Under the pieces are notes generated by a model that worked only from the letters and a program-made list of their open reading frames with translations, was not told the DNA's origin and searched no databases. Below, one piece after another: positions 22,110-55,324 of a stretch of 64,000 nt of DNA (position 1 is its first letter; each line of letters opens with the position of its first letter). Location: assembly GCA_963762145.1 (NCBI GenBank), contig CAVXJS010000011.1, forward strand, positions 800,001 to 864,000, in the 5' to 3' direction. The position numbers and the translations under genes are program-made. The DNA is from an uncultured Candidatus Rokubacteria bacterium (GTDB lineage Bacteria > Methylomirabilota > Methylomirabilia > Rokubacteriales > CSP1-6).

Positions 22110-23342
22110 GTGACCGCGCTGTCAGCCGTCCTCCGCAAGATCGACGCGGACGAGGTCGTGGAGCTGACCCGCTCGCTCGTCCGCATCCCCAGCGTCTATC
22201 GTCCCGGCGACCCCGAGGCGACCGAGGCGCGCGTGGCCGCCTTCGTCGAGACCTGGTTCCGGCGCGAGGGCTTCCAGGTGGAGGTGCAGCAGGTCGCACC
22301 CGGCCGTCCGAACGTCATCGGCTCACTCGGCGAGAAGCGGGCCGGGGGCCGGAGCCTGCTGCTCGAGGGTCACACCGACGTGGTGACCGAAGGCGATCCG
22401 GCCGAGTGGTCGCACCCGCCGTTCGGCGCCGACATGGTGGACGGTCGCATCTACGGTCGCGGCACCGCCGACATGAAGAGCGGGCTGGCCGCGGCCATGG
22501 TCGCGGCCGCCGCGTTCAAGCGGGCCGGAGTCGCGCTGCGGGGCAAGCTGGTGGTCGGCGCCCTCGTGGACGAGGAAGACGGCATGATCGGTGTCCGTCA
22601 CCTCTGCGGCACCGCGGTGGGCCGCGAGCTGGACGCCGCCATCATCTGCGAGCCGGAGGAGAACGAGCTCTGTCTCGAGCAGCGGGGTGTGGTCTGGGCG
22701 CGTTTCCGCGTCCGCGGCAAGATGGCGCACGGGGCCATGCCCCAGGCGGGCGTCAACCCGATCGCGGGCCTCGGGCGGCTGCTGGCCGCGGCGCCCGGGC
22801 TCGAGCGACGCCTCCGGAAGGCCTGCGAGAAGAGTCGGTACCTCAAGCCGCCGACGGTGACGCCGACCATCATCCAGGGGCCGCCCCCCGGCGTGGGGGT
22901 GCCGCAGTCCAATGTCATCCCCGCGCTGGCCGAGACCACGTTCGACATCCGGCTGACCCCGGGCATTGGCGCCGACGGCATCCGAGCGGAGCTCGAGGCG
23001 ATCTGCCGGGACGCCGCCGCGGCCCAGCCCGGGATCAAGGTGGAGTGGGAGCCGGTCAACGCCTTCCGCCTGGCCACCAAGGTGGACCGCTCCGAGGCCC
23101 TGGTGGCGGCGATGGTTCGCGGGGTCAAGCAGGCGACCCGCCGGGCCGCCAAGTACGGCGGGGTGCCGGGCTCGACGGACGGCACGATCCTCCGGATGGA
23201 GCTGGGGATTCCGATCGTGACGTGTGGGCCTGGGGACCGCCTGATTCCCCACCAGGTCGATGAGTTTGTCAGAGCCGAAGAAGTGGTCGAGGCGGCGAAG
23301 ATTTACGCCGCATCGGCTCTGAACTACCTCGAAGCCGAGTGA
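22110..23342 (+). CDS. M20 family metallopeptidase (ArgE/DapE-like)
   Basis: EGHTDVV, GRGTADMKSG, DEE, CEPE, GSTDG, HQVDE. Confidence 0.92.
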   Translation: MTALSAVLRKIDADEVVELTRSLVRIPSVYRPGDPEATEARVAAFVETWFRREGFQVEVQQVAPGRPNVIGSLGEKRAGGRSLLLEGHTDVVTEGDPAEWSHPPFGADMVDGRIYGRGTADMKSGLAAAMVAAAAFKRAGVALRGKLVVGALVDEEDGMIGVRHLCGTAVGRELDAAIICEPEENELCLEQRGVVWARFRVRGKMAHGAMPQAGVNPIAGLGRLLAAAPGLERRLRKACEKSRYLKPPTVTPTIIQGPPPGVGVPQSNVIPALAETTFDIRLTPGIGADGIRAELEAICRDAAAAQPGIKVEWEPVNAFRLATKVDRSEALVAAMVRGVKQATRRAAKYGGVPGSTDGTILRMELGIPIVTCGPGDRLIPHQVDEFVRAEEVVEAAKIYAASALNYLEAE

Positions 23343-24646
23343 CCCGCACCGGCCACCCGAGGCTCCGGGCCCTCGAGGCCTTCCCCGTCGAGCAGCAAGG
23401 ACAGCGCTGCGTGGCGCTGCGGGATCCCGCCGGCTTCACCGATCAGATCGCCGTGCTCCCACCGCCTCTGCTGGACCTGGTCTCGCTCTTCGATGGGGAG
23501 CATTCGATCGAGGAGATCCGGGAGATCCTGCGGCGCCGGCACGGCAAGGCGCCCACGCTCGAGCAGGTCACCGACGTCGTCGAGCGGTTCGACGCGGCCG
23601 GGTTTCTCGACAGCGAGGGGTTCCGGCAGCGTCGGCGGGCGCTCGAGAATGCCTTCCGCCAGAGTCCGGTCCGTCCCGCGGCCCACGCCGGCGGTGCCTA
23701 TGCGGGCGACGCGGCGGGACTTCGGGCGCAGATCGATGGGTTCTTTACCGCGGCGGACGGGCCGGGACGTGGTGGCAACGGTGACTTCATTACTTATCCG
23801 GTCGCCTCGCCTTCGGCTGCGGCTCCCCAAGCCACTCCTGCGGCTCCCCAGGCCACTGCGGCTCCGTGGTCTCGGACTCGGGCTTTGATTGCGCCGCATA
23901 TTGATTTCCATCGGGGGGGCTCGACCTACGCGTGGGCGTACCGGGAGGTCCTCGAGCGCTCCGACGCCGATCTCTACGTCGTGCTGGGTACCTGTCACGC
24001 GGGGATGCCCGATCCGTTCGCGGTGACCCTCAAGCCGTACGAGACGCCGCTCGGCGCCGTTCCGGTGGACCGGGAGTTCTACGAGGCGCTCAACCGGCGG
24101 GCGGGGCAGGACCTGCTGGCCTCCGAGCCGGCCCATCGCACGGAGCACTCGATCGAGTTCCAGGCGGTGATGCTCCAGCACATCGTCGGGCCGCGCCGTT
24201 CCTTCGCCATCCTGCCGGTGCTCGCCTCGTACCTGCACGAATCGCTGTGGAGCGGCGGCGATCCCGAGGCGGATGCTCGGATCCCGCGCTTCCTGGACGC
24301 GCTGCGGGAGACGATGGCGGCGTCCTCGCGCCGGGTGTGCCTGGTCGCGGGGGTGGACCTGGCCCACGTGGGGCCCCGGTTCGGCGATGGCGAGCCCAAC
24401 AGCGCGGCGTCCCTGGCACGGGTCGAGCGGGACGACCGCGCCATGCTGGAATCGGTGGTGGGAGTGGATCCGCGAGGCTTCTACGGCGGGATCGCCGCCG
24501 ACCACGACGCCCGCCGCATCTGCGGCCTCTCGCCGATCTACACCCTGCTGCGGCTCCTGCCGGAAGCCCCGGGCCGCCTGGTGCGGTATACGCAGTGGCC
24601 GGATCCGCAGGGCGCGGTGACCTTCTGCGCGGTGGCCTATCCATGA
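23339..24646 (+). CDS. AmmeMemoRadiSam system protein B (Memo family), long form with an in-frame repeat insertion
   Basis: RPAAHAGGAY, LIAPHIDFHRG, EHSIEFQ, GVDLAHVG, ICGLSPIY. Confidence 0.88.
   Translation: MTRTGHPRLRALEAFPVEQQGQRCVALRDPAGFTDQIAVLPPPLLDLVSLFDGEHSIEEIREILRRRHGKAPTLEQVTDVVERFDAAGFLDSEGFRQRRRALENAFRQSPVRPAAHAGGAYAGDAAGLRAQIDGFFTAADGPGRGGNGDFITYPVASPSAAAPQATPAAPQATAAPWSRTRALIAPHIDFHRGGSTYAWAYREVLERSDADLYVVLGTCHAGMPDPFAVTLKPYETPLGAVPVDREFYEALNRRAGQDLLASEPAHRTEHSIEFQAVMLQHIVGPRRSFAILPVLASYLHESLWSGGDPEADARIPRFLDALRETMAASSRRVCLVAGVDLAHVGPRFGDGEPNSAASLARVERDDRAMLESVVGVDPRGFYGGIAADHDARRICGLSPIYTLLRLLPEAPGRLVRYTQWPDPQGAVTFCAVAYP
23804..23865. repeat. In-frame hairpin element plus 21-nt tandem repeat within the Memo gene
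   Basis: GCCTCGCCTTCGGCTGCGGC shares a 16-nt core (reverse complement) with 30446-30461 and 30482-30497; CTGCGGCTCCCCARGCCACT x2 (23817-23836, 23838-23857) plus a partial copy. Confidence 0.75.
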
Positions 24647-25137
24647 GCCCGAGCCCCACGCCCGATCCCTCGACCTGGACCCTGCCGAAGCTGCGCATCG
24701 ACCGCGACGGCGTCTGGTTCCACGACGACGCCGAGGTCACGCACCCCGGCATCGTCGCCAACCTGCGCGACAACCTCCGCGTGGACGAGCGCGGCCACTA
24801 TCTGCAGATCGGTCCGGCGCGGGTCCCGGTGGAGGTGGAGGACGCGCCGTACGTCGTCGAGCGCGTCGAGGCGCAGGGCGAGGGTCTCACCGCCACGCTG
24901 AACGACCTGACGCGGGAGCCGGTGGCCCTCGACACCCTCCGCGTGGACGAGCGGGGCATCCCGCGCTGCCGCGTCAAGGAGGGCCGGTTCGACGCGCGCC
25001 TGAGCCGGGCCGCGACCTATCAGCTCCTCCAGCAGGTGCAGCCCGACGAGGGGACCGGCCGGTCCAGCCTCGTCCTCGGCGGGCGGCGCTACCCGGTGCC
25101 GGGCCTCTCGGCGGAGGGCTCCGGCCCCGGCGGGTAG
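24643..25137 (+). CDS. DUF1285-like protein
   Basis: LRIDRDGVWFHDDAEVTH...VEVEDAPYVV...TLND...ARLSRAATYQL; ATGA overlap with the Memo stop. Confidence 0.7.
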   Translation: MSPSPTPDPSTWTLPKLRIDRDGVWFHDDAEVTHPGIVANLRDNLRVDERGHYLQIGPARVPVEVEDAPYVVERVEAQGEGLTATLNDLTREPVALDTLRVDERGIPRCRVKEGRFDARLSRAATYQLLQQVQPDEGTGRSSLVLGGRRYPVPGLSAEGSGPGG

Positions 25138-25682
25138 GCGGAGAGCCCGCGCAGCCCGGCCTCGTCGCCCGCCGCGATGAGCCGGTGCAGGGGACCGTTC
25201 TCCCGCCAGGCCTGGCAGGTGTTGACGAACCACGGCGCGCCCTCGGCGGGCCGCTCGTAGTCCGCGAAGGCGACGCCCGCCCCCTGGCGCACCGCCGGGG
25301 CGACCGCGTGGATCAGGGCGGTGAAGTGGGCGCAGCCGCGCTGCCGGCCGAAGCGCTCGTTGATCTCCCGCGTGAAGCCCCGGGAGATTGACAGGCCGAC
25401 GAGCTGCTGGAGTGGCGGCAGCGCGTCCGGACAGATCGTGTAGGGATGCGAGGCCATCTCGCTGCGCGCCTCGGTGATCACCAGGTCGGGATGGCGCACC
25501 CGCAGGCCCAGACGCATGTCGTGGATCACCCTCGGCGGCTCGGCACCGAACCAGAGCGGGTTGTCGTGAGGTCGCTCGTCCACCAGCGTCGCGGTGATCT
25601 CGAGCTCGTGCGCGCCCGCCCGCGCGATCTCGACGCGGATGGTCCTGACGTGCACCGGCGGGGTCTTCGTCTCCTCGGTCAT
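25089..25682 (-). CDS. DUF2889 family protein
   Basis: HVRTI, IHDM, PYTICP, GCAHF, NTCQAW. Confidence 0.85.
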   Translation of the reverse strand: MTEETKTPPVHVRTIRVEIARAGAHELEITATLVDERPHDNPLWFGAEPPRVIHDMRLGLRVRHPDLVITEARSEMASHPYTICPDALPPLQQLVGLSISRGFTREINERFGRQRGCAHFTALIHAVAPAVRQGAGVAFADYERPAEGAPWFVNTCQAWRENGPLHRLIAAGDEAGLRGLSAYPPGPEPSAERPGTG

Positions 25683-26470
25683 GGCGCGGCCGCGACCTCC
25701 TTGAGGGCTTCGAGCAAGTCGGAATGGATCGGGCCGTTCGAGGCCGCGATGGTGGGCGCCGCCAGGTCGAGCGGGCCCCCGTGCACCGCGGTCACGGTGC
25801 CGCCCGCCTCGCGGATCAGCAGCGCGCCCGCGGCGATGTCCCAGGCGCCCAGGCGCTGCTCCCAGTAGCCGTCGAGCCGCCCGGCCGCGACCGCGGCGAG
25901 CCCGAGCGCGGCGGAGCCCAGCGAGCGCACGCTACGGCAGCGCCGGATGAGGGCGGCGTGCTCGGCGAGATTGTTGCGCGGAGCGGCCAGGAGATCGTTC
26001 GGGTAGCTCGTGCCGAGCAGGCTCAGGCCGAGCGCGGGGGTCGCGGAGACGCGCAGGGGCGCGCCGTTCAGGGTGGCCCCGCGCCCGCGCTCGGCCACGA
26101 AGCATTCGTCCCGGCTGGGATCGTAGAGAACGCCGACGGCCAGCTCGCCGTCCAGCTCGAGCGCGATCGACACGCAGTAGATCGGCAGCCCGTGGGCGTA
26201 GTTGGTGGTGCCGTCGAGCGGGTCCACGATCCAGCGACACGGCTCGGTCCCACCGCGCGCGCCGCTCTCCTCGGCGAGGACGGCGTGCCCCGGAAACCGG
26301 GCCCGGATGGCGTCGAGGATGATCGCCTCGGCGCCCTGGTCCATCTCGGTGACGAGATTGGTGGGGCTGCCCTTGTAGCTGATGTCGTGCCGAGCGCCGA
26401 AGCCGGATCGGAGGAACGCGCCGGCCTGGAGAGCCGCCTCCACGGCGACGTCGCGGAAGGAATCGCTCAC
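25679..26470 (-). CDS. suhB: Inositol monophosphatase family protein
   Basis: WIVDPLDGTTNY, GSAAL, WDIAAGALL; GTG start at 26470. Confidence 0.9.
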   Translation of the reverse strand: MSDSFRDVAVEAALQAGAFLRSGFGARHDISYKGSPTNLVTEMDQGAEAIILDAIRARFPGHAVLAEESGARGGTEPCRWIVDPLDGTTNYAHGLPIYCVSIALELDGELAVGVLYDPSRDECFVAERGRGATLNGAPLRVSATPALGLSLLGTSYPNDLLAAPRNNLAEHAALIRRCRSVRSLGSAALGLAAVAAGRLDGYWEQRLGAWDIAAGALLIREAGGTVTAVHGGPLDLAAPTIAASNGPIHSDLLEALKEVAAAP

Positions 26471-26532
26471 GGGGATCCAGGATACCACGGCGCTGCTTGA
26501 CAACCCGGCGGCCCTCTCGCAGCATGGCGCGC

Positions 26533-27465
26533 ATGCGCATCGTGGTGATGGGGTCGGGCGGGACCGGCGGATTCTTCGGCGCCAAGCTGGCGCGAGCGGG
26601 TGAGGACGTGACCTTCGTGGCGCGTGGCGCGCACCTGGCCGCGCTCCGCGCGGACGGCGTGCGGGTCAGGTCCGCGATCGAAGGCGAGTGGACGGTGCGG
26701 GCGCCCGCGGTGGAGCGTCTGGACGGGCTGCCGCCCGCCGACGTGGTGCTCTTCTGCGTGAAGTCCTTCGATACGGAGGAAGCCGCCGCGCTGATCCGTC
26801 CGGTCGTCGGCCCCGACACCGGCGTGCTCTCGATCCAGAACGGGGTGGACAACGAGGAGAAGCTCGGACGCGTCCTCGGCGCCGGCCACGTGCTGGGCGG
26901 CGCGGTCCGGGTGTTCGCCACCATCGAGGCGCCGGGTGTCATCCGGCACGTCTTCGGCGGACATCTCGCCTTCGGCGAGATGGACGGCCGCGAGACCGAG
27001 CGCGCCCGGGCCCTGCTGGCCGCGTGCCAGAAGGCGTCCATTCCGGTGGAGCTCGTCGGTGATGTGACCCGCACCCTCTGGGACAAGTACGTGTTCCTGA
27101 CCACCCACGCCGGGATGACCGCGCTGACCCGCTGCTCGGCGGGGGTGCTGCGGGCGATTCCGGAGGTGCGAGAGGTCTACCGTCGGATCGCGACCGAGAT
27201 CATCGCGGTCGGAAGAGCCGCCGGGGTGAAGCTCGACGACTCGATGCTGGAGCAGGGGTTCAAGTTCCTCGACACGGTGGCGCCGGACGCGTTCTCGTCG
27301 CTCCACCACGACCTGACGCACGGCAAGCGGCTCGAGCTGGATGCCCTCCACGGCCACGTGGTGCGGCTGGCCGAGCGCCACCGCGTGCCCGCGCCCACCG
27401 TCTTCGCGATCTACGCGGCGCTGCTCCCGTATCGGGACGGCGCTCCCGCCACTCCCGCGCGCTAG
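26533..27465 (+). CDS. panE: 2-dehydropantoate 2-reductase
   Basis: MRIVVMGSGGTGG, VKSFD, SIQNG, WDKY, SSLHHD...LELD. Confidence 0.9.
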   Translation: MRIVVMGSGGTGGFFGAKLARAGEDVTFVARGAHLAALRADGVRVRSAIEGEWTVRAPAVERLDGLPPADVVLFCVKSFDTEEAAALIRPVVGPDTGVLSIQNGVDNEEKLGRVLGAGHVLGGAVRVFATIEAPGVIRHVFGGHLAFGEMDGRETERARALLAACQKASIPVELVGDVTRTLWDKYVFLTTHAGMTALTRCSAGVLRAIPEVREVYRRIATEIIAVGRAAGVKLDDSMLEQGFKFLDTVAPDAFSSLHHDLTHGKRLELDALHGHVVRLAERHRVPAPTVFAIYAALLPYRDGAPATPAR

Positions 27466-27526
27466 CGCGGGCGGTCGTGCCTTCGCCCGGACTGGCGTCG
27501 GCGCGCGCCTGGTCTATACTGACTCG

Positions 27527-29386
27527 GTGTCGTCGCTCAGACGTCTCCTGCCGTATCTGGCTCGCTACCGGCTCCGCTATCTCGGGGGCGTCGCCTGCCT
27601 CCTGCTCGCCACCGCGTTCTCGCTGAGTATCCCCTGGACGGTGAAGAGCGCGGTGGACGCCCTCGAGCGGGACGGCGCCGCCGCCCGGATCGCGCCCTTC
27701 GTGCTCCTGATCCTGGCCCTGGCCGCGGCGCACGGCGCGGCGCGCCTCGGGTCGCGCTTCGCCATGCTGGGCGCCGGGCAGTGGGTGGAGCACGACATCC
27801 GCGCGGACCTCTATGCGCGGCTCCTCGCCCTGCCGGCCGCGTTCTATCACCGGCACCGGACCGGCGATCTCATGTCGCGCGTGTCCAACGACATCTCCAC
27901 CCTGCGGGCGCTGGCCGGGTTCGGCACCGTGATGCTCATCGGCACCACGCTCGCCTTCGGGGGCGCGCTGACCGCGATGTGGCTCATCGACCCGTGGCTC
28001 ACCCTGTTCGCGACGGCGCCGTTCCCCGCGCTCGTGATCATCGCGCGGCGCTTTCACCACGACACGGAGGTGCGCTCCACCGCGGTGCAGGAGCAGCTCG
28101 GCGCGCTCTCCGCCAAGGTCCAGGAGAATCTGAGCGGCATGCCGGTGGTGCGCGCGTACACCATGGAGGCCCGCGAGATGGCCGAGTTCGAGCGGCTCAA
28201 CGCGGAGTACCTCGCCCGCAACATGGCCCTGGCACGGATCCAGTCCGTGTCATGGCCGCTGATGGGGCTCGTCTCGGGCCTCGGCGTGCTGATCGTGATA
28301 TGGCTCGGCGGCAAGGCGGTGGTGGACGGCCGCATCTCGCTCGGGGACTTCGTGGCCTTCAACGGCTACCTCACCCAGCTCGCCTGGCCCACCATCGCGC
28401 TGGGCTGGACGCTGGCCAATATCCAGCGCGGCCTGGCCGCCATGGCGCGCGTGACCGAGGTGCTCGACGAGCGGGGCCACGACGGCGTGGCGGCGCGCCC
28501 GCATGATGGGTTGGACGACGGGCTGTCTGCGGAGGGTCCGGAACGGTCATCAGCCGACTGGGGGAGTGCGGGGGCCATTTCTGGGCCCCCGCATATGAAG
28601 AAGAGCGCGCCAGAACAAGCTCCCAGCCTCCTGCCCGGCGGATCGGTCGAGTTCAGGGGCTTGACCTTCGCCTACGACGGCGACCGGGGTCCCGTGCTGC
28701 GCGACGTGTCGTTCGGGGTGGCCGCGGGGGCGGTGGTGGCGGTCGTGGGGCCGACGGGCAGCGGCAAGTCGACGCTGGGCGCGCTGCTGTGCCGCCTCTA
28801 CGAGCCGCCGCGCGGGACGGTGTGGGTCGGGGGCCAGGACGTGCTCGACCTGCCGCTCGGCCGGCTCCGGCGGTCGGTGGGTTACGTGCCGCAGGAGTCC
28901 TTCCTCTTCTCCCGCCCGCTCCGCGACAACGTGCGGCTGGCCGACGAGAGCGCGGGCCCGGAGCGACTGGAGGCCGTGGCCCGGACCGCGGGACTGACGG
29001 ACGATCTGGGGGCGCTGCCCCGCGGCTGGGACACGGTCGTCGGCGAGCGCGGGCTCACGCTCTCGGGCGGCCAGCGGCAGCGCGTGGCGCTGGCGCGTGC
29101 GCTGGTGGCGGATCCGCCGTTCCTCGTCCTGGACGACGTGCTGGCCTCGGTGGACGCGGCCAAGGAATGGGAGATCACCCGTGCGCTGCGGGGAGCCGCC
29201 AGCGGCCGGACCACCTTGCTGATGACCCATCGTCTGAAGGCGGCCGCCGAGGCGGACGCCATCGTGGTGCTCGAGGAGGGCCGCGTGGTCGAGCAGGGTC
29301 GCCACGCCGACCTCCTGGCCGCCGGCGGCCTCTACGCCCGCCTCTGGCGAGTTCAGCAGCTGGAGGACGAGCTCGCCAGTGCGTGA
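27527..29386 (+). CDS. ABC exporter TMD-NBD, degenerate-Walker-B subunit of a heterodimer
   Basis: GPTGSGKS, LSGGQRQR, Walker B VLDD (lacks Glu); GTG 27527; extended TMD-NBD linker. Confidence 0.92.
   Translation: MSSLRRLLPYLARYRLRYLGGVACLLLATAFSLSIPWTVKSAVDALERDGAAARIAPFVLLILALAAAHGAARLGSRFAMLGAGQWVEHDIRADLYARLLALPAAFYHRHRTGDLMSRVSNDISTLRALAGFGTVMLIGTTLAFGGALTAMWLIDPWLTLFATAPFPALVIIARRFHHDTEVRSTAVQEQLGALSAKVQENLSGMPVVRAYTMEAREMAEFERLNAEYLARNMALARIQSVSWPLMGLVSGLGVLIVIWLGGKAVVDGRISLGDFVAFNGYLTQLAWPTIALGWTLANIQRGLAAMARVTEVLDERGHDGVAARPHDGLDDGLSAEGPERSSADWGSAGAISGPPHMKKSAPEQAPSLLPGGSVEFRGLTFAYDGDRGPVLRDVSFGVAAGAVVAVVGPTGSGKSTLGALLCRLYEPPRGTVWVGGQDVLDLPLGRLRRSVGYVPQESFLFSRPLRDNVRLADESAGPERLEAVARTAGLTDDLGALPRGWDTVVGERGLTLSGGQRQRVALARALVADPPFLVLDDVLASVDAAKEWEITRALRGAASGRTTLLMTHRLKAAAEADAIVVLEEGRVVEQGRHADLLAAGGLYARLWRVQQLEDELASA
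28559..28597 (+). repeat. Palindromic element in-frame in the ABC linker
   Basis: TGGGGGAGTGCGGGGGCCATTTCTGGGCCCCCGCATATG; 10-bp stem, 7-nt loop; identical inverted copy at 34034-34072. Confidence 0.9.
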
Positions 29387-29391
29387 ATTCC

Positions 29392-31287
29392 ATGCGTGAG
29401 CCCGAGCAGGAAGACGAGGTTCTCGGCAAGGCGTACGACGCGCGCCTGATGGGGCGCCTGTGGGCGTTCACGCGGCCGCACCTGCGCCTCGTCCTCGCGA
29501 CGTGCGCGCTCTTCCCCGCGGTGGCGCTGCTGGAGCTGTCGCAGCCGTACCTGATCAAGATCGCGATCGACGACTACATCCTGCGGAGCGACTGGGCGGG
29601 GCTCGGCGGGGTGGCGGCGCTGTTCCTGCTGGTCCTCGTTGTCCTCTACGCGCTGCGGGCGACGCAGGCCTACCTCACCCAGCTCACCGGCCAGCGCGTC
29701 ATCCACGATCTGCGCGCGGCGCTGTTCGCGCATCTCCAGCGCCAGGACGCGCGCTTCTACGATCGGAGCCCGGTCGGGCGGCTGATGACCCGGGTCCTGA
29801 ACGACGGGGAGGCGATCCAGGAGCTGTTCACCAGCGGAGCCGTAGCGCTCCTGGGAGACGTGGTCGTCCTCACCGGCGTCGTCGTGATCATGCTGGGGAT
29901 GAACTGGAAGCTGGCCCTCGTCACGTTCGCGCTGGTGCCCCTGCTGGTGCTCGCCGCGGTGTACTTCCGGGTGCGCGCGCGGGACAGCTATCGGGTGGTC
30001 CGGACGCGTCTGGCCCGGATGAACGCATTCCTTCAGGAATCGCTCCAGGGCATGAGCGTGATCCAGCTCTTCGCGCGCGAGGCCCGGGAGCGCGAGACGT
30101 TCGCGCAGCTCTCCGGCGCGCTGCGTGCCGGCCAGTTCCGCTCGACGTTCTACGACGCCTCCCTCTACGCCACGGTGGAGGCCCTGGGCTCGGCCGCGGT
30201 GGCCCTCCTGCTCTGGTACGGGGGCGGGCAGGTGGTGACCGGGGCGCTCACCTTCGGGGGCCTGGTGGCCTTCCTCGAGTACACCGGCCGCTTCTTTCTC
30301 CCGATCCGGGACCTGGGCGCCAAGTACACGGTCATGCAGGCCGCCATGGTCTCGGCCGAGCGCATCTTCGCCCTCCTGGACACCCACCCGTCGATCACCT
30401 CGCCCGCCCGAAACGGTAGCCCAGGCATGCAGTTGCAGGGTGAGGCGCAGCCGAAGGCGAGCCGGTCTGTGCCTGGTGAGGCGCAGCCGAAGGCGAGCCG
30501 AGCGGATACAAGAAAGGAAGCTACGGGAGCAACTCCACCAACCCCAGCGGCGGCGGTGGAGTTTCGCAACGTCTGGTTCGCGTACGAGGGCGAGGAGTGG
30601 GTCCTCCGCGACTGCTCCTTCACGCTCGCCCCCGGCGAGCGCGTCGCGCTGGTCGGCCCCACCGGCGAGGGCAAGACCACGATCGCGCGCCTCATGACCC
30701 GGTCCTACGACGTCACGCGCGGCCGGGTGCTGGTGAACGGCGTGGACGTGCGCGAGTGGGATCTCCACTCGCTGCGCCGGCACGTGGGGCTGGTGCCGCA
30801 GGAGGTGTTCCTCTTCTCCGGCACCGTCGAGGACAACCTGCGGCTGGCCGGCAACGGCGCCACGGACCGTGCGGCGATCGAGCGCGCGCTCGCCGCCGCG
30901 AACGCGGAGCGCTTCGTGGCCGCGCTGCCGCGCGGGCTCGGCGAGGAGCTGCGCGAGCGCGGCGTCAATCTCTCGCAGGGGCAGCGTCAGCTGCTGGCCA
31001 TCGCCCGTGCCATCATCTATAATCCACGCGTTCTCGCGCTGGACGAGGCGACCTCCAGCATCGATCCGGAAGCGGAGGCGCAGGTGCGGATCGGTCTCGC
31101 GCGATTGCTGGAGGGACGCACGAGCCTCGTCATCGCGCATCGGCTGTCCACGATCCAGCGGGCGGATCGTATTCTCGTCCTGCACCGCGGAGAGATCCGG
31201 GAGGCGGGCGCGCACGCGGCGCTGCTCGCGCAGGGGGGGCTCTACGCGCGCCTGTACGAGCTCCAGTTCGGACTGGGGCGGGGTTGA
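29392..31287 (+). CDS. ABC exporter TMD-NBD, partner subunit
   Basis: GPTGEGKT, LSQGQRQL, LDEATSSID, IAHRLST; start 29383 (GTG) or 29392 (ATG). Confidence 0.92.
   Translation: MREPEQEDEVLGKAYDARLMGRLWAFTRPHLRLVLATCALFPAVALLELSQPYLIKIAIDDYILRSDWAGLGGVAALFLLVLVVLYALRATQAYLTQLTGQRVIHDLRAALFAHLQRQDARFYDRSPVGRLMTRVLNDGEAIQELFTSGAVALLGDVVVLTGVVVIMLGMNWKLALVTFALVPLLVLAAVYFRVRARDSYRVVRTRLARMNAFLQESLQGMSVIQLFAREARERETFAQLSGALRAGQFRSTFYDASLYATVEALGSAAVALLLWYGGGQVVTGALTFGGLVAFLEYTGRFFLPIRDLGAKYTVMQAAMVSAERIFALLDTHPSITSPARNGSPGMQLQGEAQPKASRSVPGEAQPKASRADTRKEATGATPPTPAAAVEFRNVWFAYEGEEWVLRDCSFTLAPGERVALVGPTGEGKTTIARLMTRSYDVTRGRVLVNGVDVREWDLHSLRRHVGLVPQEVFLFSGTVEDNLRLAGNGATDRAAIERALAAANAERFVAALPRGLGEELRERGVNLSQGQRQLLAIARAIIYNPRVLALDEATSSIDPEAEAQVRIGLARLLEGRTSLVIAHRLSTIQRADRILVLHRGEIREAGAHAALLAQGGLYARLYELQFGLGRG
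30439..30500 (+). repeat. 26-nt direct repeat (36-nt period) in-frame in the ABC linker
   Basis: GGTGAGGCGCAGCCGAAGGCGAGCCG at 30439-30464 and 30475-30500, encoding GEAQPKASR x2. Confidence 0.85.
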
Positions 31288-54800: not shown

Positions 54801-55315
54801 GAGATCCGGGGCAGCGCGGCGTGAAGCCGCGTCCGCACAGCCTCACCGGGGCCACGTACCGGATGGAGACCCCGATCGGGACCGCCTTCATCACGGTCAA
54901 CGACAACGGCGGCGGCGAGCCCTTCGAGGTCTTCGTGCAGGTGGGCAAGGCGGGATCGGACACCATGGCGGTGGCGGAGGCGCTCGGACGGCTCGTCTCG
55001 CTCGTGCTGCGGCTGCCGTCCCCGCTGTCGCCGCGGCAGCGGCTCGAGGCGGCGATCAGTCAGCTCTCCTTCATCGGCGGCGGCCAGCCGACCGGCTTCG
55101 GCGCGGCCAAGGTGCTCTCGCTTCCCGACGCGCTCGCGCGCACGCTCGCCGAGCACATCGGCACGCCGCGCGCGACGCCGGTGCCCGCGTCGGCTCCCGC
55201 CCCCGGCGGCGGGCTGCGCCGGGTGGGGGATCTGTGCCGCGAATGCGGCCAGGCCACGCTGGTGTACGAGGAAGGGTGCAAGAAGTGTCTCTCCTGCGGG
55301 TTCAACGAGTGCTAG
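51821..55315 (+). CDS. nrdJ: Class II (adenosylcobalamin-dependent) ribonucleotide reductase with an intein and C-terminal TSCPD-like/Zn-ribbon region
   Basis: FLPNSPTLMNAG, SACYV, GGGTG, RRGANMG, NP|intein|CGEQPL, TIAPTGT, SKTIN, FRDGSK, C-terminal Cys cluster. Confidence 0.93.
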   Translation: MPSETRPSKAGRWSEPALRVLRERYLARDQGQVRETPEEMCWRVAMAIASGESRFGRSAAAVGEVAAAFYDMMVEGYFLPNSPTLMNAGKENALQYSACYVLPVGDSMEEIFESVKAAAIIQQSGGGTGFAFSRLRPKDDVVHSTGGRASGPVSFLRVFNAATEAVKQGGARRGANMGILRVDHPDVLEFIECKLDGGITNFNISVAATDAFMDAVAADGEYDLINPRTGQVAGRLRAREVWDRIVRAAWRTGDPGMIFLDRINRSPANPTPDLGLIEATNPCIGGDALVATDRGLLRMDAIAERYREGGLAVKVDQRLLPSRLMVWEGTNNVRITAYGQGCLPISRAFHSGMRETVTVRTAAGFELTCTPDHRLMTDRGWVEAGALQVDVDRVWVQSDPGAFEDDATLPVAVPSEFVGRNGRRYRHALPQRWSADLGRVLGWLVGDGWLRTAAYPRVGFVFGPEDDGALERIAGVVTPWFGRPVKVWSRARGVRHLMYPGRFFSAFFESLGVRAVGARDKTVPETLFRAPRPAVVGFLQGLFSADGVSNSPERIALTSKSRELLRGVQLLLLNLGIKSSVMDRSRAPREGLFPYRTKAGELRSYGSDGVLFELGIFGKSRGLFLREIGFLNDKQRRLEPVRHAGSYAQKWSDPVAAVVPAGPRAVYDLTEPQSHSMVANGFVVHQCGEQPLLPNDACNLGSVNVAKFAVERAGRWELDWGELERVVRLAVRFLDDVIEVNPYPLEQVDEMVKANRRVGLGVMGWADLLFTLGIPYDSEDALELAERLMVFIKEKGHDQSARLAEERGPFPHWGRSIYRHGRPLRNATVTTIAPTGTISMIAGCSSGIEPVFALAFEHRVKGPDGERVLPFFSETFERLARRQGFHSESLMTEVARRGSLAGVEGVPPAAREIFKTAHEIEAVWHVRHQAAFQKHTDNGVSKTINLPESATEEDVAAAYRQAWDLGCLGITVFRDGSKGSQVLNMGLRGDGAAGDPGQRGVKPRPHSLTGATYRMETPIGTAFITVNDNGGGEPFEVFVQVGKAGSDTMAVAEALGRLVSLVLRLPSPLSPRQRLEAAISQLSFIGGGQPTGFGAAKVLSLPDALARTLAEHIGTPRATPVPASAPAPGGGLRRVGDLCRECGQATLVYEEGCKKCLSCGFNEC
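52667..53878 (+). mobile_element. Intein (404 aa) with LAGLIDADG homing endonuclease; ends His-Gln
   Basis: N-terminal CIGGDALV; block B LTCTPDHRLMT; LGWLVGDG and FLQGLFSADG; VYDLT..HSMVANGFVVHQ|C. Confidence 0.93.
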
Positions 55316-55324
55316 GGAGCGGCC

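Follow-up and report, generated by a model that had tools for sequence, protein, structure and literature searches.

Hairpin cores within two Rokubacteria genes belong to a dispersed short repeat that is probably lineage-specific and non-autonomous

Several families of small dispersed repeats come close to the element analysed here. The Rickettsia palindromic elements (RPE) were reportedly described by Ogata et al. (2000, 2002), the mycobacterial interspersed repetitive units (MIRU) reportedly by Supply et al. (1997), and Delihas (2007) is said to have dealt with intragenic MITEs, ERIC among them, that become fused to ORFs. To our knowledge, selfish repeats carried in frame in housekeeping proteins are textbook matter for Rickettsia and have seldom been documented elsewhere.

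According to the available portions of PMC10969869 and PMC3184786, RPEs are about 105-150 nt long, nearly half of the copies of some families lie in frame in genes, and the hosts are obligate intracellular. The Rokubacteria element is like the RPEs portrayed there in being dispersed, hairpin-forming and apparently non-autonomous, and in lying both between genes and in frame in unrelated housekeeping genes, with a peptide added at positions that seem compatible with the fold. It differs from them in its length (about 50-110 nt), in its host, a free-living soil phylum of 70% G+C, in having 7 of its 76 copies in frame, in its direct tandem arrays and in its orientation with transcription, and the likeness is one of description. 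MIRUs, in the available part of PMC3184786, are units of 40-100 bp in the spacers of polycistronic operons, with filled and empty sites and ends that overlap the flanking genes. Tens of copies in a high-G+C genome, operon spacers, filled and empty sites and, in some copies, overlapping ends are likewise seen here, as is a tandem copy number that differs between strains or species (0-3 in LeuRS; 1-2 in the linker of an ABC exporter where that site is filled). However, the phylum and the sequence family are other than those of MIRUs, the overlapping mini-ORFs occur here in examples only, and there are in-frame copies inside enzymes, of which that part of PMC3184786 describes none for MIRUs. With REP, BIME and REPIN sequences the element shares a small, GC-rich imperfect palindrome in tens to hundreds of copies at gene ends, but its arrays are direct, not inverted, and it is strongly biased in orientation with respect to transcription. 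Intragenic MITEs such as ERIC, as far as PMC10969869 presents them in the part available, are similar in being small mobile sequences with open frames within genes, whereas neither terminal inverted repeats nor target-site duplications were found for the Rokubacteria element. By analogy, then, the element resembles RPE in its in-frame copies and MIRU and REP in its intercistronic, tandem copies. Its in-frame carriage occurs in a soil phylum that is free-living, uncultured and rich in G+C, and affects essential enzymes such as LeuRS and HisF.

The window analysed is a stretch of 64,000 nucleotides of contig CAVXJS010000011.1, from a Rokubacteria/Methylomirabilota MAG that is 88% complete with 5.4% contamination. 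The G+C content of the genome is 70%. Two genes in the window carry the element:

23339..24646, plus strand: Memo-family gene, host of one antisense copy (Pfam PF01875, E 1.8e-36; unbroken ORF)
23772..23860, minus strand: Memo copy of the element (tail, hairpin core, duplicated 5' arm), antisense, in frame, about residues 146-175 (nhmmer C11:823787-823834, E 2e-9; wider extent read from the sequence)
23804..23823, minus strand: hairpin core in Memo, the 20-mer of the preliminary description, C-G variant of the outer pair (string match)
23817..23858, no strand assigned: frame-preserving tandem duplication of the 5' arm in Memo, 21 nt (TRF period 21, 2.0 copies, 95% matches; repeat finder family D1)
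29392..31287, plus strand: ABC exporter gene (transmembrane domain and ATPase), element in the interdomain linker (Pfam PF00664 and PF00005 in one frame; probable ATG at 29392)
30429..30464, plus strand: first ABC copy, truncated (5' arm and hairpin), sense, in frame (nhmmer C11:830433-830464, model positions 2-33)
30470..30537, plus strand: second ABC copy, full (5' arm, hairpin, A-rich tail), sense, in frame (nhmmer C11:830470-830517, E 9e-13; tail extent read from the sequence)

The preliminary description had reported a 20-mer in the Memo gene and its near-reverse-complement twice in the ABC gene, differing at positions 2 and 19 only, read in opposite orientations in two unrelated hosts and accompanied by frame-preserving tandem duplications. 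All of this holds. Exact string matches place the core at 23804-23823, as read on the plus strand, and its near-reverse-complement at 30444-30463 and 30480-30499; only positions 2 and 19 vary among the three strings, and both translations are as described (ASPSAAA and EAQPKAS). Both ORFs are unbroken, with Memo and with ABC_membrane plus ABC_tran domains, and the periods of 21 and 36 nt, the latter between 30434-30464 and 30470-30500, are multiples of three. Three matches in the window, compared with 0.01 in a shuffled window, form a post hoc test. The decisive figure is the genome-wide count that had been proposed: 25 exact copies of a 16-mer core against 0.04 expected under a first-order Markov model. 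The reversed pattern, as a control, gave 0 matches in the 201 genomes searched.

The window 20-mers are the cores of a dispersed repeat of about 50-110 nt, of which nhmmer finds 76 copies in the genome, grouped in 64 clusters and mostly intergenic. The full unit (e.g. 30429-30537) starts with a 5' arm, continues with a small interrupted hairpin whose loop is a G-N-A triloop, and ends in an A-rich tail. Where copies form arrays, they stand in direct tandem at periods of 36-63 nt, with 5 copies in one array, and all six frames of a typical copy, read by eye, are without stop codons. An exact 22-mer occurs in 8-37 copies per genome within the same genus. The element is present in every genome of four genera (g1, 13/13; g17, 7/7; g22, 3/3; g24, 1/1) and in none of 76 genomes outside family f1 (0/76), and is thus confined to a few genera of one family. 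Rfam gave 0 matches over the whole window at the gathering score and noise only, of 14 bits or less, at both sites at E up to 10. A literature search, with subscription papers and supplements outside its scope, returned no paper on Methylomirabilota with REP, on the motif in either orientation or on Rokubacteria with MITE; the matches to Rokubacteria with repeat were off topic by title among those listed (15 of 184).

In-frame copies lie in six Pfam-confirmed genes: those for Memo, the ABC exporter, LeuRS, HisF, a TPP enzyme and a hydantoinase. Comparison of orthologues, another check that had been proposed, finds filled and empty sites at the same positions. Of 12 genomes compared at the Memo site, 3 carry the element and 9 lack it, and the alignment of 310 Memo residues to the 254 positions of the PF01875 profile implies an insertion. 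At the ABC linker, 4 of 17 genomes have the element, G014, G005 and G013 sharing it and 13 others lacking it, and in LeuRS the site is occupied in 8 of 21, some of its copies being nested. By these comparisons, the Memo and ABC copies in the window are lineage-specific insertions. In Memo, ABC and LeuRS the inserts occupy linkers that vary in length among orthologues. The Memo insert falls opposite a short loop in solved MEMO1 and the HisF insert opposite a short loop of solved HisF. The positions of these inserts seem compatible with the protein fold, and the inserted residues are presumably translated as part of their host proteins, to which they would add flexible loops.

Sites that are empty in this genome complement the picture. 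Eleven loci are filled in other genomes and empty here; at one of them, L094, the insertion elsewhere is a clean 66 nt between a stop codon and a start codon. One empty site lies within the window:

55311..55320, no strand assigned: empty site here, where Rokubacteria locus L118 has two copies (L118 flanks align to C11:855320-855407 and 855217-855311, the insert missing)

The boundaries of filled/empty pairs had no consistent target-site duplication, and no terminal inverted repeats of 12 nt or more were found in either window copy. The states of the Memo, ABC and LeuRS sites clash pairwise, all four combinations occurring, which suggests that the element was gained or lost repeatedly or that alleles were exchanged. 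Copy-number differences of this kind within one genus amount to a natural series on how proteins tolerate or recruit inserted peptides.

The hairpin itself supports in part the earlier proposal that selection acts on a nucleic-acid structure. Pairing of 20-mer positions 2 and 19 (model pair 12:29) holds across the family: they are complementary in 68 of the 76 copies of this genome, where 10000 shuffles averaged 46 and never exceeded 58, and in 133 of 136 copies of other genomes. The 8 copies of this genome that are not Watson-Crick include one G-T wobble, and a non-pairing G..A class exists. Pair 11:30 has a double change in one copy. On the other hand, the hairpin has only 6-7 pairs, interrupted, and although it is the minimum-energy fold, shuffled sequence is equally stable (z -0.07 to -1.83 as RNA; +0.40 to -0.55 as DNA). 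Moreover, the complementary states at the outer pair are G-C and C-G only, so that few independent events underlie the covariation, which may rest on very few indeed. In this genome the triloop has G as its first base in 71/75 copies and A as its third in 76/76, with a free middle base (A67 C3 G2 T3); all four middle bases are found in other genera.

In our judgement the strings probably form the core of a short interspersed repeat of Rokubacteria that is lineage-specific and non-autonomous and lies in frame in some genes. The suggestion of a mobile micro-element that remodels protein linkers agrees with the 76 copies, the filled and empty orthologous sites and the four in-frame genes beyond Memo and ABC. 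The unit would be copied to new sites, now or recently, by a function that acts in trans and recognises the hairpin. That hairpin and the internal direct repeats, two half-units of 18 nt, may jointly promote replication slippage, which would yield the tandem duplications of 18, 21, 36, 52 and 62 nt, while selection would keep the outer stem paired, probably in the transcript. Where a unit whose length is divisible by three lands in a variable loop or linker, it could be carried as extra residues.

The orientation of the copies allows a different emphasis. Elements run in the direction of the upstream gene in 46 of 54 clusters (p 1.4e-7), whereas agreement with the GC-skew strand (37/64) is not significant, and 31 of the 64 clusters have a gene on each side that runs in the element's own direction. 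Copies occupy intercistronic spacers of 56-216 nt, of 51 callable copies 14 have the stop codon of the upstream ORF in their 5' arm and 5 have it in their tail, and purine-rich stretches lie ahead of the next start codon. At L094, in our own reading, the element is spanned by a short ORF that overlaps the stop codon of the upstream gene as well as the start codon of the downstream gene. At model column 13, 49 copies have C and 27 have T, with G always opposite, a polymorphism that retains a wobble pair on the sense strand only. These features suit a cis-acting operon RNA module, in which the hairpin and a tail that is A-rich and Shine-Dalgarno-like would serve to process or stabilise polycistronic mRNAs or to couple their translation; the module would be the selected entity and the in-gene copies accidental. 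We consider this unlikely. The folding energy is unremarkable, Rfam has no match, 2 of the 6 in-gene copies are antisense, many orthologous operons work without the element, and the overlapping stop/start mini-ORF is not systematic among the copies of this genome.

Mobility and transcriptional orientation might also be joined. The element could be a transcription-oriented mobile 'intercistronic cassette', with its own stop, hairpin and purine-rich ribosome-loading tail, not mobilised by a RAYT, possibly spreading in a transcript-dependent manner and hitting a few hot spots in essential enzymes repeatedly. This is a tentative idea of rather low probability. If it were true, loops of LeuRS, the ABC exporter and others would be hypervariable between species of one genus.

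For a short interspersed repeat that is non-autonomous, the source of mobility is the next consideration. A linked RAYT/HUH nuclease had been put forward, and a classical REP/REPIN mobilised by the genome's own RAYT (a Y1/HUH transposase) would provide one. The genome has one single-copy Y1_Tnp (RAYT-like) gene with an HUH-like motif (G000:C14), several copies of the element carry GTAG directly 5' of the hairpin, as in REP heads, and a G-N-A triloop closed by C-G makes a very stable single-stranded DNA mini-hairpin. However, the inverted repeats on either side of the RAYT-like gene, 35 nt long, belong to another family, with 96 hits in inverted pairs, unlike the arrangement in REP/REPIN-RAYT systems, so that no mobilising enzyme is identified. 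Nor does the element HMM hit any of 19 RAYT loci in 16 genomes, taken with flanks of up to 1.5 kb on either side, and family f4 has Y1_Tnp in 4 of 9 genomes but the element in 0 of 16. The arrays are direct tandems, with one inverted doublet noted (C11:741702 / 741807) among the 64 clusters. No transposase was found between neighbouring or inverted pairs of elements in four regions with 12 ORFs, ten of which belong to housekeeping families and two of which were unmatched. A RAYT-driven origin is therefore very improbable, and the linkage put forward was not found.

Practically no weight can be given to chance, to convergence on a peptide-coding motif or to an artefact of assembly: although 70% G+C makes short GC-rich matches common and the genome is a MAG, chance is refuted by the genome-wide counts, the copies differ in frame and orientation and are mostly intergenic, and the same insertions are found in independently assembled genomes and in contigs from the soil runs of two studies.

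The motif also appears in records labelled Nitrosotalea, Nitrosocosmicus, Verrucomicrobiia, Acidoferrum, Dormiibacterota and Limnocylindria, which would suggest spread across phyla. The flanks in these records have about 59-83% G+C and several of those checked align to this genome, so the labels are read as unreliable and not as horizontal spread.

Four public runs were compared with 29400-31287. RNA-library contigs covered parts of the ABC gene only, at 92-95% likeness, and no contig in the four runs bridged or skipped the ABC element. The DNA contigs, corresponding to 29401-30464 and 30486-31287, end inside it, which marks the element as a place where gene calls and assemblies break in Rokubacteria MAGs.

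The three 20-mers of the preliminary description (23804-23823 on the forward strand, 30444-30463 and 30480-30499 on the reverse) were recovered by direct search and are unlike only at positions 2 and 19. Three matches in the window compare with 0.01 expected from window shuffles, a test picked post hoc; the genome-wide count is a fair test. In this assembly (G000; 6.26 Mb, 70% G+C, 25 contigs) the 16-mer core has 25 exact copies, against 0.04 predicted for the genome under a first-order Markov model. The sequence common to the copies reaches far past the core into the flanks, and two rounds of nhmmer at E <= 0.01 returned 75 and then 76 copies, in 64 clusters. Copies can also form direct tandem arrays: five with a 52-nt period at C16:32660-32914, where the reading frame moves by one per unit, and up to six with a 62-63-nt period in genus g17 (arrays in G202 and G070). 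The element is a real repeat family of a known kind and apparently undescribed; no paper on it was found in the main text of open-access articles.

The main features are as follows; coordinates without a contig label are those of the window.

23339-24646: Memo-family gene, an ORF in which the element is read antisense
29392 (probable start) to 31287: ABC gene, with ABC_membrane and ABC_tran in one frame; element read sense
30429-30537: example of a full unit (5' arm, core hairpin, A-rich tail)
near 55311-55320: empty site, filled in another genome
C11:870842: in-frame copy in LeuRS, sense
C21:343062: in-frame copy in HisF, sense
C7:232284: in-frame copy in a TPP enzyme, sense
C21:587711: in-frame copy in a hydantoinase/oxoprolinase, antisense

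The element does run in opposite directions in its two host genes, as noted earlier (antisense in Memo, sense in the ABC gene), and both tandem duplications, of 21 and 36 nt, are genuine and frame-preserving. An alternative 319-aa ORF in another frame of the ABC region (29460-30419), which ends in a TAG at 30417-30419 just before the element and has no Pfam match, reads as spurious and could mislead a gene caller.

Comparison of orthologues favours insertion over ancestral protein sequence. The Memo site is filled, always at the same position, in G000, G015 and G005, and is empty in nine orthologues (G001, G012, G006, G010, G008, G017, G002, G024 and G013), where linkers lacking the element are shorter and of unrelated sequence. 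Set against the solved MEMO1 structure, the insert stands in place of about six residues between two aligned blocks. The ABC linker is filled in G000, G014, G005 and G013 and empty in 13 genomes, G015 among them. The Memo linker is a general hot spot of length change; that of G001 (L004) lacks the element and carries its own unrelated tandem duplication. In G013, the ABC gene (L130, C8:669144-670455) has an extra 18-nt duplication of the 5' arm and a frame change, so that a TAG is met inside the element copy, and the Memo gene changes frame near residue 284; these frame changes could be real gene splitting or assembly indel errors.

A search for ORFs running through a copy, with coding-type GC3 on either side of it, gave four more hosts, all confirmed by Pfam, and the in-frame copies use two sense and two antisense frames. 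The solved structure of HisF-LUCA has three residues in the turn where HisF carries its insert. Among 21 genomes of the genus, eight have the LeuRS site filled, by one to three copies, and 13 have it empty. At the Memo, ABC and LeuRS sites all four combinations of states are seen pairwise (Memo only filled in G015, ABC only in G013; LeuRS filled with ABC empty in G002, G011 and G018), which implies repeated gain or loss at some sites, or allele exchange. The earlier proposal of a mobile micro-element that remodels protein linkers is thus supported by the dispersed family, the filled and empty orthologous sites and the further in-frame hosts. In the LeuRS genes of G018 and G005 (L167, L181) a second copy is nested at the loop of the first in a different frame, and that of G002 (L182) contains three partial copies in tandem, patterns that may reflect self-targeting or ready recombination of the element.

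Mobility is also visible between genes. When 111 loci of other genomes were set against G000, eleven pairs were aligned, and all read as filled elsewhere and empty in G000. In the cleanest (L094) the insertion, of 66 nt, lies precisely between a stop codon and the start codon that follows it. Spacers containing the element are mostly 56-216 nt. With coding strand called by codon-position G+C, the element's sense strand agrees with the strand of the gene upstream in 46 of the 54 clusters that could be called (p 1.4e-7); agreement with the strand of positive GC skew (37/64) is not significant. Among 73 anchored copies, 51 were frame-callable and 22 not; in 14 of the 51 the upstream ORF ends inside the 5' arm, and another 11 end a short distance upstream and five in the tail, so that the element often supplies a gene's last residues and stop codon. 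A strict MIRU-like overlapping mini-ORF can be read in L094 and is not borne out as a rule among the G000 copies.

Selection on a nucleic-acid structure, as previously proposed, is supported by covariation at positions 2 and 19 but not by hairpin strength. Over the 76 copies of G000, the outer stem has three pairs (model columns 11:30, 12:29 and 13:28), followed by two facing G/A positions and a bulged C (absent from 12 copies). The inner stem consists of three G-C pairs (Watson-Crick in 74-75 of 76), and the three-base loop reads G (71/75), any base (A67, C3, G2, T3) and A (76/76). Positions 2 and 19 form pair 12:29, which is G-C in 54 copies, C-G in 14, G-T in one and a non-pair in seven; 68 copies are complementary, and 10000 shuffles average 46 and never exceed 58. 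In other genomes 133 of 136 copies, found with a pattern that fixed the 3' arm only, are complementary here. Counting against a strong structure, only two complementary states occur at this pair, and a G..A class is also present. Pair 11:30 shows a double change in one copy. At column 13, 49 copies have C and 27 have T, with G opposite in every case, so that wobble pairing is preserved for the sense strand alone. The core hairpin is the minimum-energy fold in ViennaRNA, with a stability not greater than that of shuffles (z -0.07 to -1.83 as RNA, +0.40 to -0.55 as DNA). Nearest-neighbour models underrate the stability of C-closed G-N-A triloops and of tandem G-A pairs.

The suggested REP-like link to a RAYT was looked for and not found. 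Outside the window, G000 has a single Y1_Tnp (RAYT-like) gene (308 aa; C14:128640-129683, L124:1362-2405) with a 35-nt inverted repeat on either side. These repeats belong to a different family, whose 96 matches (<=3 mismatches) mostly form inverted pairs spaced by about 60 nt. The arrangement resembles a classical REPIN-RAYT system, and its repeats may be the 'first hairpin family' of the preliminary description. The element HMM, run on 19 RAYT loci from 16 genomes, found no match. In family f4, Y1_Tnp is present in 4/9 genomes and the element in 0/16. ORFs between neighbouring copies belong to housekeeping families or to none.

In two reviews (PMC10969869, PMC3184786), RPEs are the paradigm of in-frame repeats in unrelated genes. 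MIRUs, of 40-100 bp, occupy the spacers of operons; their sites may be filled or empty, their tandem number varies and their ends overlap the flanking genes. REPs are palindromes of roughly 35 bp. On those descriptions the element's in-gene copies behave like RPEs and its intergenic copies like MIRUs. Neither the cognate transposase nor the inverted doublets of REP/RAYT systems were found for it, nor the terminal repeats of MITEs.

An exact 22-mer, searched in 201 genomes of the phylum, is present in 30: all of g1 (13/13), g17 (7/7), g22 (3/3) and g24 (1/1), with a few single matches elsewhere and none in the 76 genomes outside family f1; as a control, the reversed pattern had no match in any genome. 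Titles of motif-bearing records name Candidatus Rokubacteria or Methylomirabilota. Others name Nitrosotalea, Nitrosocosmicus, Verrucomicrobiia, Acidoferrum, Dormiibacterota and Limnocylindria (e.g. L013, L014, L016, L021, L023, L031-L034); G+C in their flanks is about 59-83%, and several that were checked align to G000 (for example L013, at 90% identity). Judged by sequence, these labels look wrong and were treated as unreliable.

The ABC gene is contained in soil DNA runs from several studies, and contigs of RNA libraries match parts of it at 92-95% likeness. No contig in the DNA runs bridges or skips its element; contigs enter from both sides and end there, and their summed depth over the element is very high.
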